A stretch of 24,122 nucleotides of DNA, taken from assembly GCA_012086945.1 (NCBI GenBank), contig GCA_012086945.1_3922.1. The stretch is one strand, 5' to 3'. Every line of letters starts with the position of its first letter. The first letter of the stretch is position 1. Positions 1,764-24,122 of the stretch are shown here, in pieces. A program made the translations under genes and the position numbers. Under the pieces are notes generated by a model that did no database searches, had not been told where the DNA came from, and saw only the letters and a list, made by a program, of their open reading frames with translations. Source of the stretch: a phage.

Positions 1764-4463
1764 TTAGTGCACTTCAAGCCAGCTTTTACCAACCTTACCA
1801 GTACCTGTTACAAGTGTTTCTTTCTTAAGACCTAAATTCTTAGAAGCTTGTCCATAATACCAGTCAGTAACTGCTTTCACTTCTGCCGTCATACTTTCTG
1901 GACATTCCCAGCTTGTTTCATCGTGATATGCGCAGAGCAAACGAGCACCAATAGCTGGTTTACGACCATTTAACTTCATCAAACCTTCGTCAATCATACG
2001 ACGACAAGCAAGGTTAATTGCCTCATTTTGAATCTGAGCCTCTGAACCCATCAAAAGATAGTTCAACAGTTTGTGTGGAGATTTACACCACAACCAAGCT
2101 CCAGCAACCTTTACAAATCCCCCTTTAGAGATTGCAGCGGTCTTACCAAAAACCTCTTCAAGTGCCTTTTTAGTCGCTTTGTAGTCAGCTTCCAAGTCAT
2201 CTAGCAACTTCTTAATTTTAGGCAAACGAATAAAGTAAGTCTGTTTAGTCAGTGCACCTTCCTGAGTAGTTGCAGCTTTAATTGTCTTAGCAAACTTCTC
2301 ATCACCTGCACCGAACAGCAGTGCATAGATACCATTCTTAGCTTTTTTACGACCCTTACTAATCTCATGGAGAAGATTCTCATCCTGAGTGGCTCGACAA
2401 GTCAAGATATCCTGCTCATCATTCAAGCTAAAGTAAATACTGTTCAGTGTGTGTGCATCAGTCCCTGAATAGACAACGTACAGGTCATTCTCAGAGTCAT
2501 AGCGGAGGTACTTATCAATCTCTGGGTTGAGGTACTCATCAAAGTGTTTGCAGTAATAGCGTCCATCTTCTTGACGAATAAACTCAATCTCTTCTTTACC
2601 TTGCGTTACCGCTTTGGTGAAGTCTTTGTCACCCATAAAGTTACAAAGAAGAACTAGCTGGGCTGAGTTCATGTCTACAGAGACAACGTTAGTACCTTCT
2701 TCACAAATCCATACTGCCCTCATTGGTTCCCCATAGACAGCAGCACCAGACGGTACGTTTACAATACCATATTGTGTCATACGTCCAGTTGAAGTACCAA
2801 ATACCATTGCACCAGCACTAAGGCGACCATCTGGACGAATCTGGTTTAGCCAACCTTTTTCATCATCCTTTGAGTTCTCAATGGTTCTGCGTCGGTGCAT
2901 CAAAGTATAGTATTTAGCAATCTTCTGTCCAAGCTCACCTTCAATCGTATCATAAGAAGATTCAGTAAGTTTTGGTGAAGTACGGATTAAGCAAGGTTCA
3001 AGCAAATCCGTGTACTTCTTCACAGACCAGTTATGTTCGATGTACTGGACACCTTCGTGTTCAACATAACTCAACCCACACCGTTCAACCATCTCCTGCC
3101 ACTTAGGATGCTTTGTAATCATCTTTTTGTTGTCTTTGAAACGACAAACTTTGACAGGGCGACCGTCTGAATCTTTCTTGTAGTTCCAGTCATCTGGAAT
3201 CCAACCAACTGATTTCAAGTAGTCTTTAACAACTGCTACCTGAGTCATACGAGAAACTTCAAACTCAATTGGTGTATATGGTGCATCAATCAATCCTGTG
3301 TAGCGACTTGACTCAAGCTCAAAGTGGTTAACAACATGACTGTTATAGTACTTCACAGTTTTAACTGTTTTTACTGGCTTCCAGTCTTTGCATTTCTTAC
3401 CAATCTTTGCATTCAACTCATTGCAAATTGCACGAGCATCCTTCATTGCTACAAAACCCTCCTTGTACTCTTCACCAGTTACAGAGTTGGTTGGTGTATA
3501 GCAATTTCTCTTTTCAATGTTAAAAATCTTTGTAGTTGGCTTACCAAATGGCTTGATTTCATATGTCTGCATCTCACCGTTACGTACCTGCTGACGATAC
3601 TTCGTCTTAGGGTACTTGGTAATTCTCTTCAGTCCATCTGCGTGACCAAATGCTTCAACATACTCATTCCAAGCTTTTGCAAACTCTTCTCCAGTGACTT
3701 TACCTTTGGTCTTAATAGTTGGAGGAAGATGTGGTTCAACTTCTGAAGCAAGCTCATTAGTCAACTTGTCAAGTTCCTTTACATGGAACTCCATAAGCTC
3801 TTTATCAGCTTTCCAACCATTGATAGCTTGTTGACTCATCCAGAAAGATGTTTCTTTAGCTCGCATATAGGTTTCATAAGTGTCTATGCCACACTTCTTT
3901 AGCTTGAGATACTCATTATCCAGTGCGCGTTTAGTTTTGGCGTTAATACGGATATCTTCCACAACACGAGTGAAGATTTCTGCATTCCACACACCCCAAT
4001 GTTCAATCTCTGGTTTACGGACACCAACACGAGCACCCCATGCAGCCAAGCCATGAGCACCTTTATAGCCTTTTGGAGTTGGTCTATCCATCCACTGAAC
4101 ACGAGACTGGATAAGAGAATCCTGAAAGAAATTACTCCACGGCTTACACTTTGGATTATCAAAGTTCCATAAATCAGGTGCAATGTGATTGAAAACCCAC
4201 CAGTCATAACCCAGACCATTATGGATGCAAAGTCGTTTTGCCTTTAACGCAAACTCAACACCTTCACGTAAACCACCCTTAATGTACTTAGTGTACTTGT
4301 GACCGAGGATAGGCTCATCTGTAAAGACCCATACAGGTGGCTCTTCATCGTCAGATTTATAATCTGCGAAAGCCATTACGTGAACTTTAGTGAACTCAAG
4401 GAGTAAACCATCAGTTTCTGTATCACCAACTAAATGTAAGTTTTTAAAATCTACGTTTTCCAT
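1764..4463 (-). CDS. DNA polymerase, family A (T7 gp5-like) with N-terminal 3'-5' exonuclease domain
   Basis: Exo I motif VGDTETDG; motif A VVSVDMNSAQLVLL; motif B RKKAKNGIYALLFGAGDEKFA; motif C AYHDE; recalled similarity to T7 gp5 (e.g. YTPIEFEV vs YTPVEHVV). Start set at ATG 4463 (MENVDF...), preceded by AGAGGGAG; the track start at 4493 lacks an SD. Confidence 0.9.
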   Translation of the reverse strand: MENVDFKNLHLVGDTETDGLLLEFTKVHVMAFADYKSDDEEPPVWVFTDEPILGHKYTKYIKGGLREGVEFALKAKRLCIHNGLGYDWWVFNHIAPDLWNFDNPKCKPWSNFFQDSLIQSRVQWMDRPTPKGYKGAHGLAAWGARVGVRKPEIEHWGVWNAEIFTRVVEDIRINAKTKRALDNEYLKLKKCGIDTYETYMRAKETSFWMSQQAINGWKADKELMEFHVKELDKLTNELASEVEPHLPPTIKTKGKVTGEEFAKAWNEYVEAFGHADGLKRITKYPKTKYRQQVRNGEMQTYEIKPFGKPTTKIFNIEKRNCYTPTNSVTGEEYKEGFVAMKDARAICNELNAKIGKKCKDWKPVKTVKTVKYYNSHVVNHFELESSRYTGLIDAPYTPIEFEVSRMTQVAVVKDYLKSVGWIPDDWNYKKDSDGRPVKVCRFKDNKKMITKHPKWQEMVERCGLSYVEHEGVQYIEHNWSVKKYTDLLEPCLIRTSPKLTESSYDTIEGELGQKIAKYYTLMHRRRTIENSKDDEKGWLNQIRPDGRLSAGAMVFGTSTGRMTQYGIVNVPSGAAVYGEPMRAVWICEEGTNVVSVDMNSAQLVLLCNFMGDKDFTKAVTQGKEEIEFIRQEDGRYYCKHFDEYLNPEIDKYLRYDSENDLYVVYSGTDAHTLNSIYFSLNDEQDILTCRATQDENLLHEISKGRKKAKNGIYALLFGAGDEKFAKTIKAATTQEGALTKQTYFIRLPKIKKLLDDLEADYKATKKALEEVFGKTAAISKGGFVKVAGAWLWCKSPHKLLNYLLMGSEAQIQNEAINLACRRMIDEGLMKLNGRKPAIGARLLCAYHDETSWECPESMTAEVKAVTDWYYGQASKNLGLKKETLVTGTGKVGKSWLEVH

Positions 4464-4493
4464 TTTTACTCCCTCTAAAATCATTAACCTCAT

Positions 4494-10330: not shown

Positions 10331-11377
10331 ATGGAGAAGTACACATTAACAAAGCTTCCCGATTCAGTTACACATGTTTTTATTGACTCTGACAGTATTG
10401 CCTATAAAGGTGCTTGTGTAGTTGAGAAAGCAAAATATAAATACGTCAATAAACTCACAGCAGAAGAGTCTGAGCCATTTGATAATGCGAAAGATGCTGC
10501 AAGATGGTTAGCAGACCAGAGAATCCTTGTGGAAGAGCTTGGCCTGACATTTGATGAAGATGAATGGGAAAGACAAACTTGGAAAGAAGCTAAGAGTGAA
10601 AAAGAAGCTATCATGGCTACTCAGCAGGTTCTTCAGGAATGGCTTAAGGTTGTTGGTAAAGAAAGAACTTGGGTAGGTTACTTAACAGAGAAGGGTGTAC
10701 ATAAACATAAAGACATTAAAGGTCTTGAGCACCAATATCAAGGTAACCGTAAAGATGCTGTCACACCAACACATTTAGTCGCTTGTCGTGAATACCTTCT
10801 GTCAAGACCAGAGTTCAAATTGATTCTTGATGGATTTGAAGCTGACTCTATCGTTATTGCTAAAGCTGAAAAGATGGGTAAAAAGGCTGCCTTAATGAGT
10901 ATTGATAAAGACCTTCGACAAGCTGAAGGTACTTACTGCATTGATATGACCTATGAAAAATCACCTTTAATTTTTATTGCTGATAACAACGTTGGTGAAA
11001 TTTGGGATTGCCCAATAAAATCAACACCAAAAGCTAAGAAGACAGTTGGGGTAGGTTTTAAATTTCTTTGTTATCAAGCTGTGGCTGGTGATAATGCAGA
11101 TAACTATTTTGGTTTAAAGGGCGTTGGTAAGGTTGCTGTAATGAAAGCCCTTGAAGGTAAAACTACTTACAAAGAGTGTCTTGATGCAATCTATGAACTT
11201 TATGCTAAGAAAGAGTCCTACACTTATGTCTCGTGGGATGGTCAAACAATTACCAGAACACCTTTAGAACTAATGCAGCAACACTTCTTCTTAGCTTATC
11301 AGGAAAGAAATAAGAAAGACGATTTTACTTTTGATAAGTATGGGTGGACACCAAATGTTAACTCAACAAACTCTTAA
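10331..11377 (+). CDS. 5'-3' exonuclease / flap endonuclease (T7 gp6-like)
   Basis: N-terminal acidic VFIDSDSIAYKG; helix-3-turn-helix-like AVAGDNADNYFGLKGVGKVAVMKAL; SIDKD motif as in recalled gp6 (ISCDKD). Confidence 0.7.
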   Translation: MEKYTLTKLPDSVTHVFIDSDSIAYKGACVVEKAKYKYVNKLTAEESEPFDNAKDAARWLADQRILVEELGLTFDEDEWERQTWKEAKSEKEAIMATQQVLQEWLKVVGKERTWVGYLTEKGVHKHKDIKGLEHQYQGNRKDAVTPTHLVACREYLLSRPEFKLILDGFEADSIVIAKAEKMGKKAALMSIDKDLRQAEGTYCIDMTYEKSPLIFIADNNVGEIWDCPIKSTPKAKKTVGVGFKFLCYQAVAGDNADNYFGLKGVGKVAVMKALEGKTTYKECLDAIYELYAKKESYTYVSWDGQTITRTPLELMQQHFFLAYQERNKKDDFTFDKYGWTPNVNSTNS

Positions 11378-11846
11378 AGAGTACCTACATTATGACCCCG
11401 AAACAGGGGTCTTTACTTGGATTAAGAAATCTGCTAGACACACAAAAATTGGCTCTGTTGCAGGTACAAACTTAAGAGGGTATACCAGAATTTATTTGTT
11501 TGGTAAGGGCTATTATGCACATACCCTAGCCGTTCTGTATATGGATGGATACCTACCTGAGTGTGTTGACCATAAAAATCATGTAACACTAGACAATCGC
11601 TGGGTAAATCTTAGGGCATGTACGTTATCAGAGAACCAATGCAATAGGTTGCTCAATAAGAACAATAAATCAGGTGTTAAAGGTGTGTACTACAAAAAAC
11701 AGTATGGTAAGTGGTCTACACAGATAACTTTTAAGAAGAGGGTCTACTTCTTCGGCAACTATGACACTATTGATGAAGCAGCAGAGGTTGTAAATAGGGA
11801 ACGTCAACGTTTACACAAAGAGTTTGCTAATAAAGGTGATGAATGA
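11331..11846 (+). CDS. HNH homing endonuclease with AP2-like DNA-binding domain (true start possibly ATG 11355)
   Basis: YDPETGVFTW...GYTRIYLFGKGYYAHTLAVLYMDGYLPECVDHKNHVTLDNRWVNLRACTLSENQCN...SGVKGVYY...GKWSTQITFKKRVYFFGNYDTIDEA fits the classic free-standing phage HNH plus AP2 pattern; overlaps the exonuclease 3' end. Confidence 0.75.
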   Translation: MISMGGHQMLTQQTLKEYLHYDPETGVFTWIKKSARHTKIGSVAGTNLRGYTRIYLFGKGYYAHTLAVLYMDGYLPECVDHKNHVTLDNRWVNLRACTLSENQCNRLLNKNNKSGVKGVYYKKQYGKWSTQITFKKRVYFFGNYDTIDEAAEVVNRERQRLHKEFANKGDE

Positions 11847-12343
11847 GAAAAATAAAAGGTTTTGGCAATTGCCCTGAATATGGACATTGGGTTTCACTAT
11901 GTGGTGAAGTTGACCCAGCAAAGCACTTTGGTTTTGTCTACCTAGTGTACTGCAAAAAGACTGGACAGTACTATTTGGGTAAGAAACAGCTTAATAGTGT
12001 GACTAAAAGAAAAGTTGCTGGCAAGACTCGGAAGAAGGTAGTCACTAAGGAGAGTGATTGGATGACTTATGAAACTTCTTCTGAGTATATTAAAAAAGAT
12101 ATTGAGAGCTTTGGAAAAGAATTTTTTGACTTTTACATTATTCAGACCTACTACACGAAAGGTGGCCTAGTCTATGGTGAAGCAAACCTTCAACATAAAT
12201 TCGATGTAATGACAAAAAGGATTGACTCTAAGCTCAGACTCTTCTACAATGCCAATATTGCAGCAATTAAGTTTATTACTAAAGAAACTTATGAAGATGC
12301 TGAAAAAAGAATCCATAAGGTAATGAAAGCAAACTGTGCTTGA
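11843..12343 (+). CDS. hypothetical protein (166 aa); weak GIY-YIG-like motif
   Basis: ATG overlaps the upstream stop as ATGA; FVYLVYCKKTGQYYLGKK has GIY-x10-YIG-like spacing, but downstream catalytic residues were not confirmed. Confidence 0.45.
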   Translation: MRKIKGFGNCPEYGHWVSLCGEVDPAKHFGFVYLVYCKKTGQYYLGKKQLNSVTKRKVAGKTRKKVVTKESDWMTYETSSEYIKKDIESFGKEFFDFYIIQTYYTKGGLVYGEANLQHKFDVMTKRIDSKLRLFYNANIAAIKFITKETYEDAEKRIHKVMKANCA

Positions 12344-18129: not shown

Positions 18130-20274
18130 ATGAACAAAGTACAGATTATTAAAAAGAATGGCTCACTTGAAGAACCTGATATCAAAAAAGTTTTAGCGGC
18201 AGTAACAAAGTCAGCTAACAGGGTTGGATATAAAGAACTGCCACCAGATGTTACCCAAGCTCTTGAGTCAGCATTCATGAGGATTTTGGTAAAGTCCACT
18301 AAGCAGAATAATTTGCTTATCTCGGTAAATGATATTCACAGTATTGTTGAGGGTGCTTTGGCAGAAGTCAATCACGAGATTTATGAGTCTTACTCAACAT
18401 ATAGAAATTACCGTAAAGAGGTTGCTCAAAATTGGGATGAACTCTACCAGAAGACCAAAGATACACTCTTCTTAGGAGACCGAGAAAACGCTAATTTTGA
18501 CAGCAGTTTAATTTCTACAAAAGGCTCAATTATTCGTGGTTACCTGACTAAAGAAATCTTTAAACAGTATCATCTAACACCAGAGGAACTTGAAGCCATT
18601 GAGAAAGGCTTTATCTATATCCACGATTTGAGAGACCTGATTTTTGGTGGTATTAACTGTTGCCTGTTTGACATTGGTAAAGTACTAAAAGGTGGCTTTG
18701 AAATGTCCGGCATTGAGTACTGTGAACCTAAATCTGTACTGTCAGCGTTGCAGGTTATTGGTGACGTAGTACTTTCAGCAACTGCACAGCAATTTGGTGG
18801 TTTTACTTTAGCAGAGATTGATAAGGTACTTGTACCGTATGCTAAGAAGTCTCTATGCTATCATGCTGAGAAAGCATCATCTTATGGTATTCCTAAAGAG
18901 CATTACCACAATTATGTAATGGAGCAGTTACAAATTGAACTGACTCAGGGTTTTCAGTCACTTGAGATGAAACTAAATACCGTACCTTGTAGCCGTGGTG
19001 ATTTTGCATTCACAACTTTAACATTTGGTTTACTTGACTCAGATATGTCTAATGAGGATAATCGACTCCAATACATGATTGCAAGTACTCTCCTAGATGT
19101 TCGTATGAATGGACAAGGCAAGAGCAAAAAACCTGTTGTATTCCCTAAACTGGTTTATATTTATGACCAGAAGAGACATGATGAAAATATCTGTCAAGGT
19201 CACCTGTACAGTAAAGCCATCGAGTGTTGCTCTAAAGCAATGTACCCAGATTTCTTAAGTGTGTCTGGTCATGGTGCTGTAGTAGAGGCTTTTGAGCGTT
19301 CTGGTAAGGTAATTTCACCGATGGGTTGCAGAGCCTTTTTATCTCCATATCTTAATGAGGGTGGAGAAGAGTTCTACGTTGGTCGTGCTAACATTGGTGC
19401 TGTATCTTTGAACTTACCAATGATTTACCAGTATTCTAAAGAGAATGGTTTAGATTTCTGGAAAGAGCTTGATAAGCACCTAGAGATGATTCGCAACTTC
19501 CACAAGAAACGCTACGAAATGATTGCTAATATGCCAGCAAGTTCTAACCCTCTTGCATTCACACAAGGTGGTCTGTACAAAGGAACTAAGAAACCTACTG
19601 ACAAGGTTGGTTGGGATATTGTGAAGTCCTTCACAGCTTCTTTTGGTGTTACTGCGCTTGATGAGTTGTCTGTTCTTGCTGAAGGTAAACGACTTCATGA
19701 AGTTGGAAGCTATAGTTTTGCATATGATGTTCTGGCATACATCAACATGAAAATCGAAGAGTTTAAAAATGAAGATGGCTTCTTATATGCCGTCTATGGT
19801 ACTCCAGCAGAATCACTATGTGGGACTCAGCTAAAACAGTTCAGAGATATGTTTGGCGTTATCAAAGGTGTTTCTGACAAGGAATACTTTACAAACAGTT
19901 TCCATATGAATGTTGCAGCAGACATCTCACCATTTGAGAAGCAGGACTTAGAAGAACCATTCTTCCATATCTGTAGAGGCGGTAGAATCCAGTATGTAAG
20001 AGTAGCTAACCCAGAAAACTTATCAGCACTTAAAAGTTGTATTACAAGAGGGATGTTGAAAGGTTTCTATCAGGGACTTAACTTTGACTTAGCAATCTGT
20101 GAGCATTGTGGTAACAGACCAAAATCAGATGTTGAAGAGTGTGAAGTTTGTCACTCACATGATATCTCTGTGATTAACAGGGTGTGTGGGTATCTTGGAT
20201 GGACTAAGATTAAAGGTGAATCCCGAATGAACGATGCAAAAATCGCTGAGATTCGTGACAGAGTTTCTATGTAA
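18130..20274 (+). CDS. nrdD: anaerobic ribonucleoside-triphosphate reductase (class III)
   Basis: C-terminal zinc ribbon CEHCGN...CEVCHSHD and glycyl-radical motif RVCGYLG; 714 aa. Confidence 0.9.
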   Translation: MNKVQIIKKNGSLEEPDIKKVLAAVTKSANRVGYKELPPDVTQALESAFMRILVKSTKQNNLLISVNDIHSIVEGALAEVNHEIYESYSTYRNYRKEVAQNWDELYQKTKDTLFLGDRENANFDSSLISTKGSIIRGYLTKEIFKQYHLTPEELEAIEKGFIYIHDLRDLIFGGINCCLFDIGKVLKGGFEMSGIEYCEPKSVLSALQVIGDVVLSATAQQFGGFTLAEIDKVLVPYAKKSLCYHAEKASSYGIPKEHYHNYVMEQLQIELTQGFQSLEMKLNTVPCSRGDFAFTTLTFGLLDSDMSNEDNRLQYMIASTLLDVRMNGQGKSKKPVVFPKLVYIYDQKRHDENICQGHLYSKAIECCSKAMYPDFLSVSGHGAVVEAFERSGKVISPMGCRAFLSPYLNEGGEEFYVGRANIGAVSLNLPMIYQYSKENGLDFWKELDKHLEMIRNFHKKRYEMIANMPASSNPLAFTQGGLYKGTKKPTDKVGWDIVKSFTASFGVTALDELSVLAEGKRLHEVGSYSFAYDVLAYINMKIEEFKNEDGFLYAVYGTPAESLCGTQLKQFRDMFGVIKGVSDKEYFTNSFHMNVAADISPFEKQDLEEPFFHICRGGRIQYVRVANPENLSALKSCITRGMLKGFYQGLNFDLAICEHCGNRPKSDVEECEVCHSHDISVINRVCGYLGWTKIKGESRMNDAKIAEIRDRVSM

Positions 20275-20284
20275 AACTTGACAT

Positions 20285-20322
20285 GGTGGTGTGAGTCTTG
20301 ATAGGCTTACATCACCTTTTTT
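20285..20322 (+). terminator. rho-independent terminator candidate after nrdD
   Basis: GGTGGTGTGAG ... CTTACATCACC stem (with G-U pairs) followed by TTTTTT. Confidence 0.5.
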
Positions 20323-20336
20323 ATTGGATGTTAGAT

Positions 20337-20453
20337 ATGGCAGAGAGTATTATTGGGTTGTTCATAGGTTCTGTCTTACTAGGGTTCTTTTTAGGACTCT
20401 CTTATTGTGAATTAAGAGGCAAGTTAAAATGTTTAAAATATCAAAAGCGTTGA
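20337..20453 (+). CDS. possible small hydrophobic peptide (38 aa, MAESIIGLFIGSVLLGFFLGLSYCELRGKLKCLKYQKR)
   Basis: Hand translated; one predicted transmembrane helix; weak SD. Confidence 0.25.
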   Translation: MAESIIGLFIGSVLLGFFLGLSYCELRGKLKCLKYQKR

Positions 20454-20629
20454 TATACATTCTCCACATTCTAATCTTCTTCTTTGGGGTTAGTGTTATG
20501 GTATGGGGTTTTTCAGACCCACAATGGAGTTTCGCATATCAGGGTCAGATGGATTTATGGTCATGCTTCAAACCATTTTTAGGGTTAGTCATAGCATTCA
20601 GTGCATTGCCAACTAAGGTGAAATTATGA
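20429..20629 (+). CDS. small membrane protein (66 aa)
   Basis: Two hydrophobic segments (ALIYILHILIFFFGVSVMVWGF, FLGLVIAFSAL); stop overlaps the next start. Confidence 0.4.
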   Translation: MFKISKALIYILHILIFFFGVSVMVWGFSDPQWSFAYQGQMDLWSCFKPFLGLVIAFSALPTKVKL

Positions 20630-21021
20630 TTAAGTTGAACAAAAAACAGTTAGAGTGGATTAAAGATTATGCCTCAGAGTGTGGCTCTTGCGAAAAGAAT
20701 CACGTAAGATATTCAACATTCCATACGACCTTCACATTGTACATCAGCGACAACGTTCTAAGTGATTCCGTAGAAGATGGTGTAGCGTTACCTAATGAAT
20801 TGCTTGACAAATTAGCTGTAGTCTCTGGAACTTGGTCTGAAGAAGACGGTCATGAATTATCTAACGATGTTGTCTTCTACACTCTTGAAAATATTATGAA
20901 TCCAGAGTACATTATGCTAATGACTTGTGCACAAGATTGTGTGCCATTACAAAACTTCATTAAAGAACACTGCGAAGAATTTATTACTAAACAGGTTCCT
21001 TGTCAGGTGGTGTTTGAATGA
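20626..21021 (+). CDS. hypothetical Cys-containing protein (131 aa)
   Basis: Track ORF; start and stop both overlap neighbours (translational coupling); no recognised motif. Confidence 0.5.
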   Translation: MIKLNKKQLEWIKDYASECGSCEKNHVRYSTFHTTFTLYISDNVLSDSVEDGVALPNELLDKLAVVSGTWSEEDGHELSNDVVFYTLENIMNPEYIMLMTCAQDCVPLQNFIKEHCEEFITKQVPCQVVFE

Positions 21022-21317
21022 GTAAAACAATTCGAAGAAAAGGTTTAAAGAACGTTCATGGACTCTATGAGTGGAGAAATGAGGTACGTAACAGAGAAAA
21101 TGCTTCAGATGTCTACTTCCATTCTGATATGATGTCCAGAAAAGGTGGCTCTTACGACTTCACAAGCCAGCCTTGTAGAGAGATTAAGAAGGCCACTAAA
21201 CGTCTTACAAGAACACAAATAAGGCAGCTTTCTAAGACATCCTTCTTAGATGAAGATTTTGATATTGATAGCAAGTCTCCAAAGAAAGCCGCTAAGAACA
21301 CTTATATGTATTGGTGA
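21018..21317 (+). CDS. hypothetical basic protein (99 aa)
   Basis: Track ORF coupled to the upstream gene; directly precedes nrdG. Confidence 0.5.
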   Translation: MSKTIRRKGLKNVHGLYEWRNEVRNRENASDVYFHSDMMSRKGGSYDFTSQPCREIKKATKRLTRTQIRQLSKTSFLDEDFDIDSKSPKKAAKNTYMYW

Positions 21318-21326
21318 GGTAACTAG

Positions 21327-21812
21327 ATGAATTACATGGAGATTCGACCATTTGACACAGCTAATGGTGAAGGGGTTCGTGTAAGCCTCTTCGTAGCTGG
21401 TTGTAAGCATCACTGTGAAGGTTGCTTTAATAAGGAATCTTGGAAGTTTAATGCTGGTAAAGAGTTCACTTATGCAAACCTTTATGGCATCATTAAGTTA
21501 ATGAATGATAATGCCATCAGTGGGCTGTCAATACTTGGTGGAGAACCTCTGGATGATAGAAACATTCAAGAGGTTACCAACATATGCAAACGTATTAAAA
21601 CCGTTTACCCAGAAAAATCTATCTGGCTCTGGACAGGTTTTCAGTTACACGAAAAAATTCACCTAGATGTGATGAAATATATTGACGTGGTGATTGATGG
21701 TAAGTATGATTCATCTAAACCAACAGTTAAACCATATCGTGGTTCTGATAACCAAAACCTCTGGAGAAAAGAGTATGGGTGGCAAGGTGATTGTCAGTGG
21801 CGAGCCGAGTAA
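21327..21812 (+). CDS. nrdG: anaerobic RNR activating enzyme (radical SAM)
   Basis: GVRVSLFVAGCKHHCEGCFN carries the CxxxCxxC radical-SAM cluster motif typical of NrdG; GAGG upstream. Confidence 0.88.
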   Translation: MNYMEIRPFDTANGEGVRVSLFVAGCKHHCEGCFNKESWKFNAGKEFTYANLYGIIKLMNDNAISGLSILGGEPLDDRNIQEVTNICKRIKTVYPEKSIWLWTGFQLHEKIHLDVMKYIDVVIDGKYDSSKPTVKPYRGSDNQNLWRKEYGWQGDCQWRAE

Positions 21813-21935
21813 GTCTCGTCGTAAAGTAGGTTATCGGTAAAGGCCACTTTACAATGTTCTACAGAACAAACTTAACCGTTTGGTGTCACTGAAGAGCAAC
21901 TTAAAACCTTTTGTGAAAAGATTGAGAGATATGAA

Positions 21936-22193
21936 ATGGGACTCTGGAATAGTTTTAAATTAAAAGTAAAAGCAGCACTAGCTTCATTAGGTATGCTCAC
22001 TGGTGTTGATGTGACTCATCTTATGCAGAATTTTAAGATGGATGAGAGGCTGGCTAATGAGATTATGGAAAGTATCTATGTAGGCCGTGGCAAAGGTGGT
22101 AAGAAACAAGCCCACCGCCAATCCGGTGCAGCAGCTATTAAACGAGCAGCTAAGAAAGCTCGTAACCGTAAACGTAACAAGAAGGTTAAATAA
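21936..22193 (+). CDS. hypothetical protein with strongly basic C-terminal tail (85 aa)
   Basis: C-terminus GKKQAHRQSGAAAIKRAAKKARNRKRNKKVK. Confidence 0.45.
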   Translation: MGLWNSFKLKVKAALASLGMLTGVDVTHLMQNFKMDERLANEIMESIYVGRGKGGKKQAHRQSGAAAIKRAAKKARNRKRNKKVK

Positions 22194-22195
22194 CC

Positions 22196-22516
22196 ATGAG
22201 CAAAGTTTATAACACTCGTAAATTACAGATTTTCGTACTGTGCCAGTTTATGGCTAAAGAATACAACTTCTACTATTGTGGTACAGGTTTTATTAGTGAT
22301 GATGATGGCTCATACCTCCCATTCAAAGAGGCTGTAAAACTCTTCAATGAAGAGAAAAGCTCTAAGAAAGATATTGAAAAGGTTAAGCTAACCTACAGCA
22401 AGAGAGATAAGAAGATTATCTGCCTAGATAACTTTGTGAAAGTTACTGGAGAAGCAAAAGAGTTTATGGATGAGAGTGAGATTTCATTCACAAGCATCTT
22501 GAAAGTAGCTCAGTAA
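22196..22516 (+). CDS. hypothetical protein (106 aa)
   Basis: Starts 2 nt after the previous stop; followed by a terminator. Confidence 0.45.
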   Translation: MSKVYNTRKLQIFVLCQFMAKEYNFYYCGTGFISDDDGSYLPFKEAVKLFNEEKSSKKDIEKVKLTYSKRDKKIICLDNFVKVTGEAKEFMDESEISFTSILKVAQ

Positions 22517-22527
22517 ACAGATACTAT

Positions 22528-22553
22528 AAGGGGACTGTAAAGGTTCCCTTTTT
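22528..22553 (+). terminator. rho-independent terminator candidate
   Basis: AAGGGGA ... TTCCCTT stem followed by TTTTT. Confidence 0.5.
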
Positions 22554-22567
22554 ATTTTGGAGATAAC

Positions 22568-23083
22568 ATGTATCTGTCAAATCTGAAACGTTCGGCTGCA
22601 ATGTCAGTTCTAAGACTCAGCTTTGAGGAACGTCAAGAGTTCATTGACTCCCACCAATACGACCCTTCTAACTCAAATCACATGATTCTCTGGAATCGTG
22701 AGAGCACTCGTGAAAGAGCACTATTCCGCTATTACCCACACTACACTATAGATAATTTGTATGAATGTTTTGTTGTGAAGAACACCATTACAGTTCTCAA
22801 TAAACTTTGCAGATACACAGATAGTCAATCCTTCACATTAGGTCACCACAAGCCTGTTACAAAAGGTGGTGAACATCACTGTGCAAACTGGTTTATTCAG
22901 ACTAAAGCTGATAATCAAAAGCAAGGAGATAGCCTTCTAAGCACTCCCAAGATGACCTATGAAGAGCAAGAGAAATATATCAAAAATAATATGCCAGATG
23001 TGCTTGACAACAACTATACAGATTTGGCAATATCTCTCCTGTTGAAGTTCGAGACAGTTTATAGGGCAACTTACAATGGCTAA
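22568..23083 (+). CDS. putative HNH-family nuclease (171 aa)
   Basis: LGHHKPVTKGGEHHCANWFIQTKADNQKQGD fits the HH-x-P-x3-GG ... N ... N-x-K HNH core. Confidence 0.5.
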   Translation: MYLSNLKRSAAMSVLRLSFEERQEFIDSHQYDPSNSNHMILWNRESTRERALFRYYPHYTIDNLYECFVVKNTITVLNKLCRYTDSQSFTLGHHKPVTKGGEHHCANWFIQTKADNQKQGDSLLSTPKMTYEEQEKYIKNNMPDVLDNNYTDLAISLLLKFETVYRATYNG

Positions 23084-23354
23084 AGAAAAGTGGGAGATTT
23101 TACCACTAGTCAGTGAGGGTGGTAATGGTTGTGAAATGTACATGATACGTGGTCATGTCCCAGAACCAATTGCACTTGAGATGGTAAACAATTTTACAGA
23201 TGGCTCTTACAAAGACTTGGGAGAACCAACTGTCAAGCAACAATGGGTTAAACCTGTACCAGACAGCACAGGTAACTGTAGTGTACTTTATCACGTTGTA
23301 GACCCTGCAAAATGCAAATCTGCAATGGCAGTAACAAACGTAACTTTTGATTGA
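23076..23354 (+). CDS. hypothetical protein (92 aa)
   Basis: ATG overlaps the upstream stop; weak SD. Confidence 0.4.
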   Translation: MAKEKWEILPLVSEGGNGCEMYMIRGHVPEPIALEMVNNFTDGSYKDLGEPTVKQQWVKPVPDSTGNCSVLYHVVDPAKCKSAMAVTNVTFD

Positions 23355-23366
23355 GAGAGAGAGAGA
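23353..23366 (+). repeat. (GA)7 dinucleotide microsatellite directly upstream of ATG 23372
   Basis: gagagagagagaga read directly from sequence. Confidence 0.9.
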
Positions 23367-23371
23367 AAACT

Positions 23372-23836
23372 ATGATTTTTTGCAATTCCCAGAAGCATGT
23401 AATAGAGATTCTATATAAGGAGTTTGGTACAGAGAACACCTTTGACTCAAATGAAGCAATTGATGTACTAAGAGAAAAAAGCCTCTTTATAAGAGGTCAA
23501 TCAATTAACAATGCTCGTGGCTACCTAACAGTGCTAAGGCAATCCGGTGTACTGATAACTGTAGGCCAAATAAAAAGTAAGGGGAGACTAAGCATCAACC
23601 AGATTAACCGAGCTTTTATGGAGAAACACCCACAACTATCACGAATGTTAGATGATGGACATGGGGAGGTAAAGAGCCTTCAAAAAACAACCTCGACCGA
23701 TGTTAATTCAGTTGACATACAACCAGATGTTAGGTATTTTATTGAGGATGTGATGTTTAAAACAATGGATGAAGCAGTTGAACACTGTAAAAAACATCTG
23801 ATTAAAGTTAAACGTGCAAAGATTGTTTGGGAATAA
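23372..23836 (+). CDS. hypothetical protein, first copy of a tandem paralogue pair (track 23351..23836 shortened to ATG 23372)
   Basis: The track start is TTG inside the GA repeat; ATG 23372 gives MIFCNSQKHVIEILYKEFGTENTFDSNEAIDVLRE..., paralogous to the next ORF. Confidence 0.55.
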   Translation: MIFCNSQKHVIEILYKEFGTENTFDSNEAIDVLREKSLFIRGQSINNARGYLTVLRQSGVLITVGQIKSKGRLSINQINRAFMEKHPQLSRMLDDGHGEVKSLQKTTSTDVNSVDIQPDVRYFIEDVMFKTMDEAVEHCKKHLIKVKRAKIVWE

Positions 23837-23869
23837 TACTTCAAAAACTTCTATTGAGAGAAAAAGAAC

Positions 23870-24122
23870 ATGTTAAGTTCATTTTACATAGCACTGACTG
23901 AGATTCTATATAAAGAATTTGGTACAGATACCATCTTTGACTCTAATGAGGCTATAAAAGCTCTCAGAAGTGGAAGTGACTGCCTAAGTAAAAGCCCTAT
24001 AGCAAACATTCGGTATTACTTGACCACAATGCGTAAAATGGGGCTACTGATGGCTGTAAGTCAGGGAACAAAAGACTGTGCTTCTCTATACCTAAACCAA
24101 CTAAATAAAATGATGATAGAGA
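23870..24122 (+). CDS. hypothetical protein, second copy of the tandem paralogue pair, 3' end truncated by window edge
   Basis: Hand translation MLSSFYIALTEILYKEFGTDTIFDSNEAIKALRSGSD...YYLTTMRKMGLLMAVSQ aligns with the 23372..23836 product; the nucleotide sequences are also similar. Confidence 0.5.
   Translation, partial: MLSSFYIALTEILYKEFGTDTIFDSNEAIKALRSGSDCLSKSPIANIRYYLTTMRKMGLLMAVSQGTKDCASLYLNQLNKMMIE

Follow-up and report, generated by a model that had tools for sequence, protein, structure and literature searches.

The stretch analysed here comprises 24,122 nucleotides (nt) of phage DNA (NCBI GenBank assembly GCA_012086945.1, contig GCA_012086945.1_3922.1) and is referred to below as the window. 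The analysis concerns three nuclease-like open reading frames (ORFs) in it: ORF-A and ORF-B, which follow a 5'-3' exonuclease gene, and ORF-C, which is located downstream of nrdG. Over most of the window (24 kb), identity to Felix O1-like phages (Felixounavirus, Ounavirinae) is 92–96%, and the window can be assigned by sequence to the replication and nucleotide-metabolism region of a Felixounavirus. According to the original prediction, all three ORFs are selfish homing endonuclease genes that mark insertion hotspots between conserved genes. In our reading, the window probably contains one mobile element, ORF-A, and two resident nuclease genes, ORF-B and ORF-C. The ORF listing confirmed the three frames, and the main features are as follows.

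10331..11377, plus strand: 5'-3' exonuclease gene (T7 gp6/flap endonuclease (FEN)-like; phrog_107 at 4.2e-66)
11331..11846 (ATG at 11355), plus strand: ORF-A, probable free-standing homing endonuclease gene with HNH_3 and AP2 domains (Pfam, phrog_99, comparison of alleles)
11354..11838, plus strand: HNH cassette, approximate limits of the insert (net +485 bp versus the empty allele)
11394..11411, plus strand: GC-rich hairpin GACCCC-GAAACA-GGGGTC inside the YDPETGVF codons of ORF-A (found in a scan for terminator-like structures)
11843..12343, plus strand: ORF-B, predicted resident gene of a domain-only SegE-type GIY-YIG nuclease (Pfam PF19835), normally overlapping the exonuclease gene
22568..23083, plus strand: ORF-C, 171 amino acids (aa), HNH-like H93...N107...N116 motif in a helical scaffold (phrog_3500)

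Strong purifying selection acts on all three ORFs. When compared with relatives, the ratio of nonsynonymous to synonymous substitution rates (dN/dS) is 0.015 for ORF-A, 0.02–0.12 for ORF-B, and 0.05–0.14 for ORF-C, and the exonuclease, nrdG, and MazG genes fall in the same range. Since these values match those of the neighbours, the three ORFs are functional genes and not chance reading frames. Sequence searches of the PDB gave no useful match for any of the three proteins; matches of ORF-C to Protein A were dismissed as noise inflated by repeats. No further homing endonuclease genes were found among the window ORFs scanned against the family libraries.

ORF-A is 171 aa long when read from the TTG at 11331, with in-frame ATG codons at 11340 and 11355. 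Judging from the junction described below, the start is likely the ATG at 11355, preceded by a Shine–Dalgarno (SD)-like GGGTGGA at 11342..11348. The 5' end overlaps the exonuclease gene, whose stop codon is at 11375..11377, while the TGA stop of ORF-A and the ATG of ORF-B share the sequence ATGA. ORF-A therefore has its own reading frame between the exonuclease stop region and the GIY-YIG start, overlapping at both ends, with no intron or intein. Of the HNH-AP2 architecture expected for this ORF, the HNH part was clearly found and the AP2 part at a sub-threshold score. The HNH_3 domain of Pfam is matched at 1.2e-11 (44.4 bits, cut-off 24.8), and phrog_99, annotated as 'HNH endonuclease', at 7e-69. 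The AP2 domain is matched by all four ORF-A alleles tested (best 3.1e-7), although the score of the window copy (4.3e-4, 20.9 bits) is under the cut-off of 33.3. Residues D80, H81, N93, and N102 are invariant across three alleles that are 57–59% identical in protein.

The distribution of ORF-A was studied using the exonuclease end, ORF-A, and ORF-B as one query, which matched 298 phage records; 60 of them were sampled evenly, 52 of which were Felixounavirus-like, and occupancy of the exonuclease/GIY-YIG site was called from the span of the record. The site is occupied in 19 of the 52 Felixounavirus-like records (span 1435–1453 bp) and empty in the other 33 (923–959 bp). The allele of the window is present in about 21 records. 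Felix O1 and wV8 carry two other alleles in exactly the same place, each with 57–59% protein identity to that of the window, so at least three diverged alleles share one insertion point, at the border of the exonuclease gene and its downstream neighbour. The site is empty in Pr103Blw, the record that matches the window best over its full length. In the sister genus Kolesnikvirus, in the unrelated roseophage DSS3_VP1, and in the metagenomic contig L020, the exonuclease gene directly overlaps the GIY-YIG gene and ORF-A is absent; for this reason, the empty state is considered ancestral. A similar picture can be seen in IMG/VR, where 11 contigs have the recoded junction described below and 10 have the exact empty site, with none having both. 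The HNH frame is present in 10 of the 11 recoded contigs, in one of them ended by the edge of the fetched stretch. In the eleventh, L052, which matches Salmonella phage Si3, the HNH gene is frameshifted and looks like a decaying copy.

The junctions were determined by aligning the empty genomes of humlepung and Pr103Blw with the occupied genomes of pinkbiff, FelixO1, and wV8. The empty allele reads ...TGGGAGCC, then GTGT, then ATGAATGAAGATTAAAGG, with the junction in codons being ...TTT AAG AAA TAT AAT TGG GAG CCG TGT ATG AAT GAA GAT TAA AGG.... In this allele, the GIY-YIG gene starts at ATGAAGATT, and its GGGAG ribosome-binding site falls within the final codons of the exonuclease. Occupied genomes have a recoded version of this homologous stretch, which reads GAT AAG TAT GGG TGG ACA CCA A, followed at the boundary by ATG TTA.... 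Altogether, the last ~15 exonuclease codons (11333..11377) are recoded in genomes with the HNH gene, and the exonuclease C-terminus before the stop is DKYGWTPNVNSTNS in the window versus KKYNWEPCMNED in the empty-site phages. The right junction, ...TATGAATGAAGATTAAAGG, is kept in several occupied alleles and is identical to the empty site. Since the left junction is recoded and the right one is retained, the insert separates the ribosome-binding site from the ORF-B start codon. The cassette gives the exonuclease a new tail and terminates in the ATGA overlap with the GIY-YIG start. The flanks diverge as well: identity to Pr103Blw and wV8 decreases from ~97% to 75% over ~600 bp before the site, and beyond it, identity to Pr103Blw is 78–87% for 200 bp and then at least 96%.

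Empty sites, several intact alleles, a decaying copy, the recoded junction, and the flanking divergence together identify ORF-A as a probable free-standing homing endonuclease gene. It appears to have been inserted into the short overlap between the exonuclease and GIY-YIG genes. The ATGA overlap noted in the original prediction is seen in the sequence, and it may re-couple translation of the GIY-YIG gene to the cassette. During co-infection, the ORF-A enzyme would bind via AP2 and cut the empty allele near ...AAGAAATATAATTGGGAGCCGTGTATGAATGAAG...; the putative target in the empty junction of humlepung (MN850564) and Pr103Blw (MW481326) is ...TTTAAGAAATATAATTGGGAGCCGTGTATGAATGAAGATTAAAGG.... 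The break would then be repaired from the occupied genome, with copying of the HNH gene and the nearby flank, and the insertion together with the recoded flank would protect the occupied allele from cutting.

Several observations weigh against this explanation. The AP2 score of the window copy is sub-threshold, and the target site is deduced only from where the alleles differ. Humlepung is empty, yet it has the left flank of the window, while wV8 is occupied, yet it has the flank of Pr103Blw. As the flank haplotypes track occupancy imperfectly, the divergence gradient could be a result of general recombination in the region. Furthermore, the synonymous divergence (dS) of the HNH allele between the window and pinkbiff is 0.18 compared with 0.21–0.26 for the flanks, and by this measure, the allele is a long-term resident and not a recent invader. 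An allele that is old relative to its flanks, with dS similar to that of its neighbours, and a partial uncoupling of occupancy from flank haplotypes would also be expected if ORF-A were no longer homing and acted as an AP2 DNA-binding regulator or a competition (marker-exclusion) factor, its presence and absence being caused by ordinary recombination and deletion. The conserved hairpin and the possible sequestering of the SD sequence and start codon (see below), which suggest tight expression control, are in line with such a role. This explanation seems improbable, however, given that three diverged alleles have all kept the catalytic D-H...N...N residues unchanged, that three lineages occupy exactly one site with a recoded junction, and that one copy carries a frameshift, in keeping with the cycle of gain, decay, and loss that homing genes go through.

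The hairpin within ORF-A is part of a 26-nt block (11388..11413, TATGACCCCGAAACAGGGGTCTTTAC) coding for YDPETGVF. Across four HNH-AP2 lineages whose identity otherwise does not exceed ~60%, one of them being a paralogue located elsewhere in the genome, this 26-mer does not differ even at synonymous positions. The exact 26-mer was found at 14 IMG/VR loci belonging to four different HNH lineages. The RNA fold of 11340..11430 has a predicted energy of -23.2 kcal/mol (z = -2.3), and the SD sequence and start codon of ORF-A, upstream of the hairpin, are also predicted to pair. The identity of the 26-mer suggests either selection at the nucleic-acid level, possibly for expression control, or gene conversion between paralogues. 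In contig L052, the frameshift in the HNH gene (~2525..2620) falls within the conserved hairpin region (MLTQQTLKEYLHYDPKQGSLLG, followed by a stop).

As for ORF-B (166 aa), the 'weak GIY-YIG-like motif' ascribed to it understates the similarity: the protein matches SegE_GIY-YIG (PF19835) at 8.9e-27, with 94 bits against a cut-off of 25. In an alignment of 52 sequences of the family, W16, G30, F31, Y33 (GIY), Y44, G46, K47, K48 (YIG), E113, and N136 are invariant. The AlphaFold model is confident (predicted local distance difference test score, pLDDT, of 94.1), and the closest solved fold is the catalytic domain of I-TevI (PDB 1ln0), EndoII being a weaker structural match. No DNA-binding domain was found in ORF-B, and Pfam gave no second domain (NUMOD3 or helix-turn-helix, HTH). 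The model shows nothing beyond the nuclease core, strands at the N-terminus, and a single helix at the C-terminus, whereas longer PF19835 relatives, such as P0030, do have NUMOD3.

ORF-B is present in 298 of the 298 matching records, including those of Erwinia phages, with or without ORF-A. The idea that ORF-A and ORF-B form a two-part enzyme was rejected because about two thirds of the relatives have ORF-B without ORF-A. In Kolesnikvirus and DSS3_VP1 (Naomviridae), ORF-B and the exonuclease gene overlap. A tblastn search revealed homologues in 813 phage records, ~400 of which belong to cyanomyoviruses, and short forms are conserved in hundreds of these cyanomyovirus records. When 12 contexts were sampled, Felixounavirus itself included, the homologue immediately followed an exonuclease gene in seven, usually with an overlap. 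The exonuclease is of the FEN type (PHROG 107) in Felixounavirus, Kolesnikvirus, DSS3_VP1, and L020 and of the Cas4 type (PHROG 1990) in contigs L015/L016, L024, and L025; in contig L018/L019, a single ORF separates a Cas4-type exonuclease gene from the homologue. All the exonuclease-adjacent homologues are within a module of PolA, MazG, and ribonucleotide reductase (RNR) genes. Because ORF-B directly follows the exonuclease gene even in other phage families, gene order indicates a vertically inherited, resident gene of the replication module and not an insertion.

A different origin of ORF-B has to be considered. It may be an ancient, fixed Seg-type homing endonuclease that lost its DNA-binding domain. 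What is left would be a neutral relic or else a domesticated nuclease with no tie to the exonuclease, and its place behind the exonuclease gene would stem from an old insertion preference and not from a functional link. The Pfam family is named after SegE of phage T4 and contains longer members with NUMOD3 DNA-binding motifs, and the closest solved fold is the catalytic domain of a homing endonuclease. On the other hand, strong purifying selection and invariant catalytic residues do not agree with a relic, the short forms are kept in hundreds of cyanomyovirus records, and a position after unrelated FEN-like and Cas4-like exonucleases is hard to square with sequence-specific homing. On balance, we consider this origin unlikely, though it retains appreciable weight. 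The occurrence after two unrelated exonuclease types fits better with a functional link than with sequence-specific homing.

We therefore suggest, with low confidence and by analogy, that ORF-B is an endonuclease partner of the adjacent exonuclease, which may take part in processing branched DNA or in DNA breakdown for nucleotides. In a broader form, which is somewhat doubtful, the ORF-B family (PHROG 447) would be an unrecognised core component of PolA-type replication modules, its endonuclease working with a FEN- or Cas4-type exonuclease. If true, ORF-B would be a domesticated relative of homing endonucleases in the role of T7 endonuclease I. No junction resolvase is annotated in the full pinkbiff genome, where most genes are 'hypothetical', and this lends the proposal weak support. 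Some facts speak against a resident, exonuclease-linked gene: the short homologues L017, L021, and L023 are lone opposite-strand genes, like mobile genes; the cyanophage copies L007 and L022 have no adjoining exonuclease gene; and the role proposed for ORF-B is drawn from gene order only. Public records label ORF-B 'GIY-YIG homing endonuclease', and the label 'NAD synthetase', given to its homologues in many GenBank/RefSeq records and in PHROG 447, found no support.

ORF-C begins 756 nt past nrdG, in agreement with the predicted position of an HNH-type ORF after the nrdG block. Two small ORFs and a terminator-like hairpin are located between them, and the features of this stretch are as follows.

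21327..21812: nrdG
22196..22516, plus strand: 106-aa DUF7390 ORF (Pfam DUF7390 at 2.1e-16; phrog_4462, 'unknown function')
22528..22550, plus strand: terminator-like hairpin between the DUF7390 ORF and ORF-C (9 bp stem and T-run)
23076..23354, plus strand: 92-aa ORF overlapping the end of ORF-C, co-deleted with ORF-C in vB_Si_35FD

The HNH-like motif of ORF-C is conserved, yet it stays below the profile thresholds. The protein matches phrog_3500 (unknown function) at 1.1e-91 and HNH PHROGs weakly (5.8e-4 and 4.4e-3), and no Pfam nuclease domain was found at threshold in the window copy. PF01844 is matched by three of the 14 family members, weakly (best E-value 0.0085). A profile of the family matches P0047 at 2.6e-4, exactly over its true HNH domain (HNH_5 at 8e-13), and an hhalign comparison with HNH gave an E-value of 0.0016 but a probability of 16%. 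The family is small, with 18 representative clusters among 1.84 billion proteins. In 14 sequences with identities down to 22%, H93, G100, G101, and N107 show no variation and N116 almost none, which corresponds to the pattern GH-x-x-P-x-x-x-GG-x-H-x-x-x-N-W-x-x-Q-x-x-x-x-N. The AlphaFold model is mediocre (pLDDT 71) and has strands 89–93 and 108–112, followed by helix 113–121, at the motif. A Foldseek search with this model returned nothing significant, and ~24 of the 50 sub-threshold rows were HNH domains.

ORF-C is carried by 241 of the 254 Felixounavirus records and is present as one copy per genome in 429 phage records, including Kolesnikvirus, phAPEC8-like, and phi92-like phages. It is syntenic in Kolesnikvirus (44–52% identity), and the Erwinia phage phiEa21-4 has it in the corresponding slot, ahead of prs and nadV. 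The phage vB_Si_35FD has lost ORF-C together with the 92-aa ORF as one block, with 41 nt of the ORF-C start remaining; the rare absences of ORF-C are a block deletion and not an alternative empty allele. The deletion in this isolated phage indicates that ORF-C is dispensable. Taken together, the sequence data describe ORF-C as a conserved, dispensable, predicted HNH-like (beta-beta-alpha-metal) protein of a small family found in several groups of enterobacterial myoviruses, and it appears to behave as a resident, not a mobile, gene.

ORF-C is a small, conserved, single-copy, HNH-like protein, and an accessory role in DNA packaging comparable to that of the terminase-adjacent HNH proteins of HK97-like phages was evaluated, given that such packaging proteins are described as widespread (Kala et al. 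2014, as cited in PMC10448857). This role is scarcely credible and was rejected on position and dispensability: ORF-C is in the nucleotide-metabolism block between nrdG and prs/nadV, the pinkbiff terminase is ~35 kb away, and vB_Si_35FD lost the gene without loss of viability.

A two-gene module of ORF-C and the 92-aa ORF was likewise considered, and this idea was dropped because the 92-aa ORF shows no similarity to the downstream ORFs of phiEa21-4 or phi92. The terminator-like hairpin at 22528..22550 is strong, and ORF-C may start a separate transcription unit. The records of Felix O1, wV8, and pinkbiff put 'putative HNH endonuclease' on the DUF7390 ORF and not on ORF-C; no HNH signal was detected in the DUF7390 ORF in Pfam and PHROG scans.

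These distributions bear directly on the view that each of the three ORFs is a selfish free-standing homing endonuclease gene marking an insertion hotspot between conserved genes. Nuclease-type motifs are indeed present in ORF-A, ORF-B, and ORF-C, ORF-B bears a homing endonuclease name in public records, some of its short homologues look like lone opposite-strand insertions, and a few phages are without ORF-C and the next ORF. However, ORF-B was found in every matching record, is syntenic across genera and families, and lacks a DNA-binding domain, while ORF-C is single-copy, is conserved in nearly all Felixounavirus records with synteny in Kolesnikvirus, and is missing by block deletion. Universal conservation at the same position had been named in the original prediction as evidence against its own proposal, and ORF-B and ORF-C show such conservation. 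The all-selfish view is already contradicted by these distribution data, and we find it very improbable. What stands of it is ORF-A, which is sporadic, occupies one exact site, and is absent from the outgroups; comparison with relatives lacking it defined its insertion site, whereas ORF-B and ORF-C are not sporadic. The exonuclease/GIY-YIG junction is accordingly an insertion hotspot, and only one of the three genes is an inserted element. The proposed domain searches gave a divided result in the window, with HNH_3 and GIY-YIG above threshold, AP2 below it, and no Pfam nuclease in ORF-C.

The remaining gene content of the window, obtained from Pfam and PHROG scans, includes genes of a deoxynucleoside monophosphate kinase, a primase/helicase, a MazG-like protein, nrdA, and nrdB, in addition to nrdD and nrdG. 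Two of the larger genes are located as follows.

1764..4493, minus strand: DNA polymerase gene
18130..20274: nrdD

In the pinkbiff genome, homing endonuclease genes split nrdD, follow the DNA polymerase gene, and sit between prs and nadV, and in FSL SP-010, the polymerase and nrdD genes are split according to the annotation. The window has an unbroken nrdD and, downstream of the polymerase gene (below 1764), no endonuclease gene, while the prs/nadV junction is beyond the window end. The intact nrdD and polymerase flank mean that the window represents the empty state for at least two of these additional hotspots. Six copies of homing-endonuclease-associated sequences are reported for Felix O1 (PMC8300805), and a heavy 'infestation' with homing endonucleases has been noted in larger E. 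coli phage genomes (bioRxiv 10.1101/2021.03.08.434280).

Two other variable places were observed. At 21812..21936, pinkbiff and Pr103Blw have ~180 extra bases and a 125-aa ORF overlapping the nrdG end, which are absent from the window. At 23351..24122, the 92-aa ORF is separated from the ribose-phosphate pyrophosphokinase gene (prs) by a 161-aa ORF (phrog_29478, unknown function) and, judging by comparison with Pr103Blw, by a second ORF after it. Most relatives go straight to prs, and of those listed, Pr103Blw alone has this stretch in common with the window; the stretch is therefore regarded as a variable accessory segment. A scan for sigma-70 promoters gave hits not above those in shuffled sequence at the exonuclease locus and 20 hits versus a shuffle mean of 11.1 in 20300..24122; no site was used as evidence.

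That ORF-A and ORF-B are endonuclease genes is known biology, as both are annotated as endonucleases in the GenBank records of near-identical phages. The additions made here are modest: the anatomy of the insertion site, a natural series of alleles, and the placing of ORF-B and ORF-C among conserved resident nucleases instead of 'selfish insertions'. For tests of intron-less homing in a phage other than T4, the locus is a clean natural series, comprising empty sites, three alleles that have diverged, and a single copy in decay. The exonuclease/GIY-YIG junction is prone to recombination and should be masked in phylogenetic trees. Blanket 'homing endonuclease' labels on nuclease-domain ORFs of therapeutic Salmonella and E. 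coli phages are misleading, as is 'NAD synthetase' for ORF-B. Exonuclease genes repeatedly come paired with a domain-only GIY-YIG nuclease, a modest hint of an uncharacterised function in replication or recombination.

The Mob genes of phage T4 are a functional analogue of free-standing homing endonuclease genes of the HNH and AP2 type. Proteins combining HNH and AP2 are a described homing endonuclease family according to PMC10448857, which cites Magnani et al. 2004. ORF-A resembles these phage endonucleases, including the IPA-HNH genes of ICP1 phages (PMC10448857), in having an N-terminal HNH_3 domain and a putative C-terminal AP2 domain. Like other homing genes of this type, it stands alone between conserved replication genes and is sporadic at a fixed site with divergent flanks. 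It differs from them in lying within a translationally coupled gene overlap and in rewriting the C-terminus of the upstream exonuclease. In turn, ORF-B differs from the T4 Seg endonucleases, other PF19835 members, and I-TevI in consisting of the domain alone, without a NUMOD3, HTH, or zinc-finger part, and, unlike the sporadic Seg genes, in its universal conservation and synteny. T7 endonuclease I (gene 3), acting beside the exonuclease of gene 6, is a functional analogy for ORF-B and its exonuclease, although ORF-B has no sequence relationship with gene 3; another is T4 endonuclease II (DenA), a stand-alone GIY-YIG enzyme (PDB 2wsh). Finally, ORF-C is homologous to phi92 gp200 (PHROG 3500), with 41% identity and the same length, and the phi92 authors annotated gp200 with a 'predicted HNH endonuclease-like fold'. 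The neighbourhoods are different: the phi92 gene is next to a UvrD-like helicase gene, whereas ORF-C is located between nrdG and prs.

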